Shown: positions 34,782 through 35,601 of the stretch, one piece after another
How positions within the stretch are numbered: position 1 is the stretch's first letter
Layout of the letters: every line of letters begins with the position of its first letter
Source of the DNA: Escherichia coli
GTDB taxonomy: Bacteria; Pseudomonadota; Gammaproteobacteria; Enterobacterales; Enterobacteriaceae
Assembly: GCF_024298765.1 (NCBI RefSeq)
Contig: NZ_CP101210.1
Reading direction: 5' to 3' (one strand)
Length of the DNA stretch: 64,000 bases
Position numbers and translations under genes: made by a program
The notes under the pieces: model-generated
What the model saw: the letters and a program-made list of their open reading frames with translations, nothing else
Told to the model about the DNA's origin: nothing
Database searches by the model: none

Positions 34782-35105
34782 ATGGATGCACAAACACGCC
34801 GCCGCGAACGTCGCGCAGAGAAACAGGCTCAATGGAAAGCAGCAAATCCCCTGTTGGTTGGGGTAAGCGCAAAACCAGTTAACCGCCCTATTCTCTCGCT
34901 GAATCGCAAACCGAAATCACGAGTAGAAAGCGCACTGAATCCGATAGACCTTACGGTGCTGGCTGAATACCACGAACAGATTGAAAGCAACCTGCAACGT
35001 ATTGAGCGCAAGAATCAGCGCACATGGTACAGCAAGCCTGGCGAACGCGGCATAACATGCAGAGGACGCCAGAAAATTAAAGGTAAATCTATATCACTTA
35101 TTTAG
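34782..35105 (+). CDS. N: antiterminator N
   Basis: ORF 34704..35105; start [24 protein letters not shown]... (arginine-rich motif), 107 aa, lambda N. Confidence 0.95.
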
Positions 35106-35601
35106 AAAATGCAGATTTAGGGAACAGATAGGAGGCGTTACACCTATGGCATCTCATCCTATGGTTAGAAGGTGGTGCAAATCCTTCGTATTGAAGTATG
35201 GATTTCACAGAAGATTCATAGCATTGAGCGCAAAGATAGTGCATTGGCTGACCGGTATTTGCCGATTTTTTGAGACGATAAACCACCGTAGCAACAGTAG
35301 GTGTATACATCTCATAGTTTTTCTTTTCCTCTTCCCACTTAGAGGCTCGATTTATCTTTTCTTCAAGCTCAATAATCTTGTCCTTAGAAATCATCAAAAG
35401 CTCATTAAGTGACATTTGCTGCTGTTGGGCATCCATGAGCTTATCGACAAGTTCGTATGTTTTTTCTTTTACTGAGTAGTCTATTTGCATTTTCTGGATT
35501 TCCTTTACTGCGCCAACAGCACTCATCAGAGCACCTCCGGCACCAGAAACTGCATCTGTAATCCTACTTATTATTCCTTTTTCATCAGACATATAAATCA
35601 C
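35098..35601 (-). CDS. hypothetical coiled-coil protein with C-terminal CxxC...CxxC zinc ribbon; opposite-strand moron in the sieB/ral position
   Basis: 167 aa; CAQC...CHRC motifs; convergent with N; AT-rich; no resemblance to lambda SieB or Ral as recalled. Confidence 0.55.

Follow-up and report, generated by a model that had tools for sequence, protein, structure and literature searches.

The window (the whole stretch of Escherichia coli DNA that was analysed, 64,000 nt of contig NZ_CP101210.1) includes the immunity region and the early-left region of a lambda-like prophage, in which transcription from pL runs along the plus strand. Across positions 34400-36300, the sequence matches Escherichia phage ev099 with 100% identity and, over 72% of that length, lambda with about 96%. 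Downstream of the antiterminator gene N, a gene on the minus strand and its leader occupy the region, which is laid out as follows.

32602-33315, plus strand: repressor gene cI
33443-34300, plus strand: NYN-domain gene, 285 aa, in the rexAB position
34525-34553: OL/pL hexamers
34783-35105, plus strand: antiterminator gene N, also annotated from 34704 (ORF list, lambda and ev099 annotation)
35098-35592, minus strand: rip1 coding sequence, 164 aa and stop (ORF list, Rip1 match, AlphaFold2 model, cysteines, dN/dS)
35593-35601, minus strand: nine bases between an in-frame GTG and the ATG, partly the Shine-Dalgarno-like AAGAGAG
35603-35623, minus strand: leader hairpin CTCTTAC-CCCTACA-GTAAGAG (terminator scan, RNA fold)
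35625-35630, minus strand: TAAAAT, a -10-like hexamer (alignment of eight leader variants)
35636-35693, minus strand: 58-nt block at the boundary of the sieB/rip1/hkaP slot (blastn against lambda, upstream alignment)
35849-36217: ea10, followed by cIII/kil, gam, bet and exo

Gene arrangement and reading frame downstream of N

Comparison with lambda by blastn resolved the region into three homologous blocks. The first extends through the stop codon of N at 35105, up to which N is 93.5% identical to lambda. The second is the 58-nt block at 35636-35693, identical (100%) to the lambda sequence located 29-86 nt upstream of the sieB start, and the third begins at 35698, after ral. These blocks indicate that the sieB coding sequence has been precisely replaced while its upstream DNA was retained, and that ral and orf28 are absent. 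At the 35693/35698 junction, the 340 nt of lambda ral and orf28 are missing, and the sieB-type block runs almost straight into the sequence preceding ea10. Judged from these alignments, rip1 has been swapped as a cassette into the slot of sieB, in the same orientation as sieB. In lambda, sieB (34482-35036) lies on the strand opposite to pL and abuts N tail-to-tail. A preliminary description of this DNA had placed both lambda sieB and ral on the pL strand, which is correct for ral but not for sieB. It had also regarded the opposite orientation as peculiar to this prophage; lambda sieB, however, sits at the same place and points the same way, so the orientation comes with the slot and makes no contrast to lambda.

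The minus-strand ORF at 35098-35601 encodes 167 aa when read from the GTG, as in the preliminary description. Translation most likely begins with the ATG at 35592, giving 164 aa, since the homologues and the PDB chain discussed below have 164 aa beginning with MSDEK, and the Shine-Dalgarno-like AAGAGAG (35607-35601) lies 8 nt upstream of this codon. The stretch 35593-35601 is thus probably untranslated. The ORF is convergent with N, and the 3' ends of the two genes share 8 nt. It is also AT-rich: its GC content is 39.6%, whereas N has 49.5% and the part of the window that is prophage has 48.9%. Both properties agree with the preliminary description.

Between rip1 and a homologue from Edwardsiella, the dN/dS ratio in the minus-strand frame is 0.12, and 38 of the 59 differences fall at third codon positions of that frame. 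This substitution pattern indicates that the frame is under purifying selection and that the minus-strand gene is the real one. The preliminary description had allowed for an antisense artefact, against which both the low ratio and the homologues, which keep their length and four cysteines, speak.

On the minus strand at 34609-34623, the nutL boxB hairpin (GCCCTGAAGAAGGGC) is followed by TTAATTTTTA and scores as terminator-like; it could end a rip1 transcript running antisense through N. A strong intrinsic-terminator-like hairpin with a T-run lies on the plus strand at 35801-35822, upstream of ea10, within a block that matches HK620 upstream of hkaP and adjoins tL2A as annotated there. At 36277-36335 (plus), the Rfam model RF01804, the lambda cIII thermoregulator element, matches with 88.5 bits against a gathering score of 50.

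The NYN-domain protein (33443-34300, plus, 285 aa) is encoded immediately after cI and in the same direction, where lambda has rexA/rexB. Its best family match is phrog_5783, whose function is unannotated (E 1.5e-119), with only weak hits to TIGR00288 (NYN) and PADLOC HEC-09 (E 2e-4), and no sequence match in the PDB. We consider it a candidate for a lysogen-expressed nuclease-type defence gene. The N-terminal 55 residues of the resident Nu1-type small terminase (22397-22942, minus) match PADLOC 'mad1' (E 1e-11), which probably reflects a shared DNA-binding domain and not a defence function.

The protein Rip1 and its family

Searching the PDB by phmmer with the 164-aa product returned 9oox_L, 'ring interacting pore 1 (Rip1)', with an E-value of 1.4e-105; this chain also has 164 aa and is one of 12 such chains in the entry. 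The two proteins share 163 of 164 residues (99.4%, the same value as by tblastn), the sole change being Y98 in the window for H98 in Rip1 of phage HK446, at a position that varies within the Rip1 family. An AlphaFold2 model of the product, with a mean pLDDT of 74, was compared with the PDB by Foldseek and matched 9oox_M (E 6.1e-18, TM 0.86, r.m.s.d. 2.0 Å over 125 columns, 99% identity). The homology and structure searches proposed in the preliminary description thus both lead to Rip1 (9OOX), a reported defence protein.

The model consists of a flexible N-terminal helix of low pLDDT, rich in Gly, Ala and Ser (approximately residues 7-33), a long helix (residues 39-90) and a β-rich C-terminal domain with four cysteines, a predicted zinc ribbon (residues 93-158). 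The long helix and the C-terminal four-cysteine domain agree with the fold in 9OOX, whose cryo-EM chains include about 125 of the 164 residues. The long helix agrees with the coiled-coil middle of the preliminary description, and the cysteines bear out its C-terminal CxxC...CxxC motif: C121, C124, C148 and C151 (counted from the ATG) do not vary among 21 close homologues, and in a set of 141 diverse family members each is kept in at least 98.6%. Residues 11-29 form the most hydrophobic 19-mer, with a Kyte-Doolittle mean of 1.28, below the usual threshold for a transmembrane helix, and the N-terminal segment presents a face of small residues (S16/G20/S24/A28). The character of this segment is not kept in distant members such as HkaP.

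The PDB entry 9OOX, released on 2026-02-04, is listed as a cryo-EM structure of Rip1 from Escherichia phage HK446 with the small terminase (TerS) of Enterobacteria phage T6. A 2025 conference report from the Maxwell laboratory describes RIP1 as prophage-encoded and as stopping incoming phages, with 12 Rip1 monomers capping the 11-subunit TerS ring, which according to the report suggests a pore-based defence. A 2026 preprint (10.64898/2026.04.30.721860) names Rip1, together with TerI, as a small-terminase sensor. The gene in the window is hence already known as Rip1 of HK446 and is not new. We estimate a probability of about 0.8 for the explanation as a whole, in which this rip1 gene serves a lambda-like prophage as a single-gene anti-phage defence with the proposed pore mechanism. 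The preliminary assignment to exclusion or defence morons is supported by a product 99.4% identical to a protein reported to block incoming phages. As the allele in the window differs from HK446 Rip1 by one substitution, it would be expected to bind the TerS ring likewise.

No significant match to the product was found in Pfam or NCBIfam, and a search of PADLOC (2023) found no model for it. Among phage protein families, it matches phrog_1244, whose function is unannotated, with residues 15-166 aligned to profile positions 2-151 of 157 (E 4.6e-53). A HMMER search against 1.84 billion representatives identified 1,873 proteins at E <= 1e-3, each a cluster representative at 50% identity and nearly all of 140-200 aa. 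The phrog_1244 match, the 1,873 family representatives and the dN/dS of 0.12 together argue that rip1 is more than a chance ORF. The family includes HkaP of HK620, HK630 and HK629 (27% identity, E 3e-13), gp30 of the Pseudomonas phage JBD30 with its relatives in D3112, DMS3 and MP (30% identity, E 6e-26), and members in Rhodobacter phage RcWaterboi, Pelagibaca phage vB_PeaS-P1 and coliphage vB_EcoM-611R5. A match to P0028 (2,879 aa, 36 stretches) was discarded as a low-complexity repeat artefact, and the exclusion genes described for Fc02 are unrelated.

Near-full rip1 is present in 95 of 5,426 complete E. coli genomes, where it is annotated as 'hypothetical protein'. Homologues with 45-63% identity in Pantoea and Serratia prophages are convergent with an N-like gene, and the N peptide is matched by Pfam in the Pantoea locus and in one Serratia locus. 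The Edwardsiella homologue (88% identity) occupies the corresponding region between integrase and repressor, with no N-like gene called beside it. In the phage contexts examined, the family gene is always opposite to at least its upstream neighbour in the lytic operon, and in JBD30 and RcWaterboi it is opposite to its neighbours on both sides.

The closest relative, HK446 Rip1 (gp37, YP_007111990), is likewise a minus-strand gene with an 8-nt overlap with the N stop and an identical 220-nt upstream region. HK446 differs from the ev099-like phage of the window, which has a Nu1/A terminase and Red recombination, in carrying Erf and Abc2, and the neighbour of the slot is an anti-restriction gene in HK446 but ea10 in the window. 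HkaP of HK620, HK630 and HK629 resembles Rip1 in its 164 aa, four cysteines, slot, orientation and virtually identical promoter and leader up to the ATG, although the protein has strongly diverged and its N-terminus is amphipathic instead of Gly/Ala-rich. Our literature search found no published function or target of HkaP. The homologues in Casadabanvirus (JBD30 gp30, D3112 orf25 and DMS3) share the 164 aa, the four cysteines and the orientation opposite to their neighbours. Instead of following N, however, the gene in JBD30 (L005 3001-3495), and also in D3112, DMS3 and MP38, is set antisense in a transposable phage, with the small terminase gene on one side and the large one on the other. This striking position of a Rip1-family gene between terS and terL hints at a built-in self-immunity to the cognate TerS.

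The leader of the sieB slot

Ahead of the ATG, rip1 of the window and HK446 and hkaP of HK620 and HK630 have a near-identical stretch of 220 nt, even though the encoded proteins are only 27% identical. Lambda sieB has the 58-nt core of this region in common. A 603-nt query gave some match in 987 of 5,426 E. coli genomes, compared with 95 for the near-full gene, so that the leader core is commoner than rip1 itself. An exact 28-mer from the leader core occurs in at least 120 IMG/VR viral contigs, and the ORFs behind it fall into at least six groups among the matches listed. The minimum numbers of members, likewise among the matches listed, are as follows.

P22-like SieB: at least 60
Rip1: at least 20
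HkaP: at least 10
Second SieB-like membrane-protein group: at least 10
Third SieB-like membrane-protein group: at least 9
Lambda SieB: at least 3

The leader contains two copies of the motif CCCCTACAG, one at 35651-35643 inside the 58-nt block and the other, 34 nt after the first, at 35617-35609. The second copy is invariant across the leader variants and is enclosed by the leader hairpin, whose 3' arm overlaps the Shine-Dalgarno-like sequence. In the terminator scan, the hairpin is terminator-like on both strands, and in the plus-strand reading it is followed by a T-rich run; in that direction it resembles a terminator that would act on pL or antisense transcripts. The stem differs among the eight leader variants, five of which are independent: pairing is kept in 78% of the cells, and at two pairs both partners vary. 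In this comparison the invariant first helix was out of register, and the covariation is at most suggestive. An Rfam search of the leader gave no match.

TAnAnT is invariant in all eight leader variants (alignment positions T37, A38, A40 and T42), which makes the TAAAAT at 35625-35630 a candidate -10 element of the promoter of the slot gene. A consensus promoter scan upstream of rip1 found no sigma-70 promoter, the candidate -10 being without a recognisable -35, and our literature search found no published map of the lambda sieB promoter.

The leader might serve as a common promoter and leader, perhaps also as a bidirectional terminator, for whichever exclusion gene fills the slot. A bolder interpretation is that the approximately 100-nt leader, which precedes no fewer than six alternative exclusion genes (Rip1, HkaP and four lineages of the SieB type), is a dedicated regulatory module, acting as an operator pair or as a bidirectional promoter, terminator or translation switch. 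We regard this as a tentative idea, more likely wrong than right. If it were true, the module would hold whatever defence gene is inserted active in the lysogen and silence it when pL fires.

Proposed mechanism and alternative explanations

In the mechanism that we propose for the lysogen, pL is repressed, a separate promoter near 35625-35630 would drive rip1, and Rip1 would idle as a monomer or small oligomer. Late in infection by a T-even-like phage, the C-terminal zinc-ribbon domains and the long helices would dock on the newly made TerS ring, which would template the Rip1 12-mer. The Gly/Ala/Ser-rich N-terminal helices, thereby clustered, would enter the inner membrane as a pore, and the cell would be depolarised before progeny are packaged, resulting in abortive infection. 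The assignment of the N-terminal helix as the pore element is inferred from its hydropathy, the small-residue face and low pLDDT in the model, and the roughly 125 of 164 residues modelled in 9OOX.

From the gene arrangement, pL transcription through N runs antisense across rip1. Upon prophage induction, N-antiterminated transcription from pL should thus lower rip1 expression. The prophage's own small terminase, of the lambda Nu1 type, gives no match to the TerS of 9OOX; the antisense transcription and this unrelated resident TerS would both limit self-killing.

Rip1 would thereby join other defences triggered by a component of the phage DNA-packaging motor, as reported for TerI (small terminase) and for Avs1-3 and Upx (large terminase). 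The Avs proteins belong to the STAND NTPases; they are large and have one domain each for sensing, ATPase activity and the effector function, whereas Rip1 is a single protein of 164 aa without an NTPase. Unlike Avs, Rip1 appears to use the oligomeric TerS ring itself as the assembly template.

The most serious alternative is that Rip1 caps the TerS ring stoichiometrically and blocks the recognition or packaging of the invader DNA without any pore, in which case the cell need not die. In the structure, as described in the conference report, a Rip1 12-mer caps an 11-mer TerS ring, from which that report only 'suggests' a pore mechanism, and the N-terminal segment is just moderately hydrophobic. 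On the other hand, the name 'ring interacting pore' chosen by the depositors implies evidence for a pore, and a weakly expressed prophage inhibitor would need to titrate a late and abundant phage protein. We consider capping without a pore unlikely, though worth keeping in mind beside the pore mechanism.

Far less probable is that rip1 acts as a functional analogue of SieB, aborting superinfecting lambdoid phages by the little-understood route of SieB, with the TerS binding being incidental. The slot, the orientation convergent with N, the 58-nt block and the CCCCTACAG motifs are those of sieB of lambda and P22, and SieB-type and Rip1-family proteins alternate behind the same leader. SieB is a prophage-expressed exclusion function, which could by analogy be counted as a further likeness, and the authors of HK620 labelled the homologue HkaP a 'putative superinfection exclusion protein'. 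However, the proteins themselves are unrelated: hhalign gave a probability of 0.2% for Rip1 against SieB and Pfam SieB was not matched, so that homology between them was rejected. SieB lacks the cysteine motif, and Rip1 lacks the hydrophobic N-terminal membrane segment of SieB-like sequences. SieB also has the Esc/sas antisense self-immunity device, of which no counterpart was found at rip1. The solved structure of a specific complex with a T-even TerS (9OOX) also argues against incidental binding.

The notion that the real gene is an 88-aa ORF on the plus strand (35146-35412), with the minus-strand ORF as its antisense artefact, draws on the RefSeq record of ev099 (NC_049953), which annotates this ORF as H3V35_gp46 and omits the minus-strand one, and on a frame free of stops across 96-104 codons in homologues, but it is refuted by the substitution pattern (dN/dS of 0.565 in the 88-aa frame against 0.12, with the third-position excess in the minus-strand frame), by minus-strand homologues that retain length and the four cysteines down to 27-45% identity, and by the purified and solved minus-strand protein (9OOX). 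In the ev099 record (NC_049953.1), the wrong strand is accordingly annotated and rip1 is left out.

As the gene is already known as rip1, what this analysis adds is mainly the errors of annotation, the wide reach of the Rip1 family and the conserved leader of the slot. Databases lag behind: PGAP gives 'hypothetical protein' in the 95 of 5,426 E. coli genomes, RefSeq has the wrong strand in ev099, and PADLOC 2.0 is without a model. The 28-mer of the leader offers a simple DNA handle by which other occupants of the defence slot could be harvested. Because the 1,873 representatives reach Pseudomonas and Rhodobacter-group phages, the sensing of terminase rings by Rip1-type proteins may be widespread.
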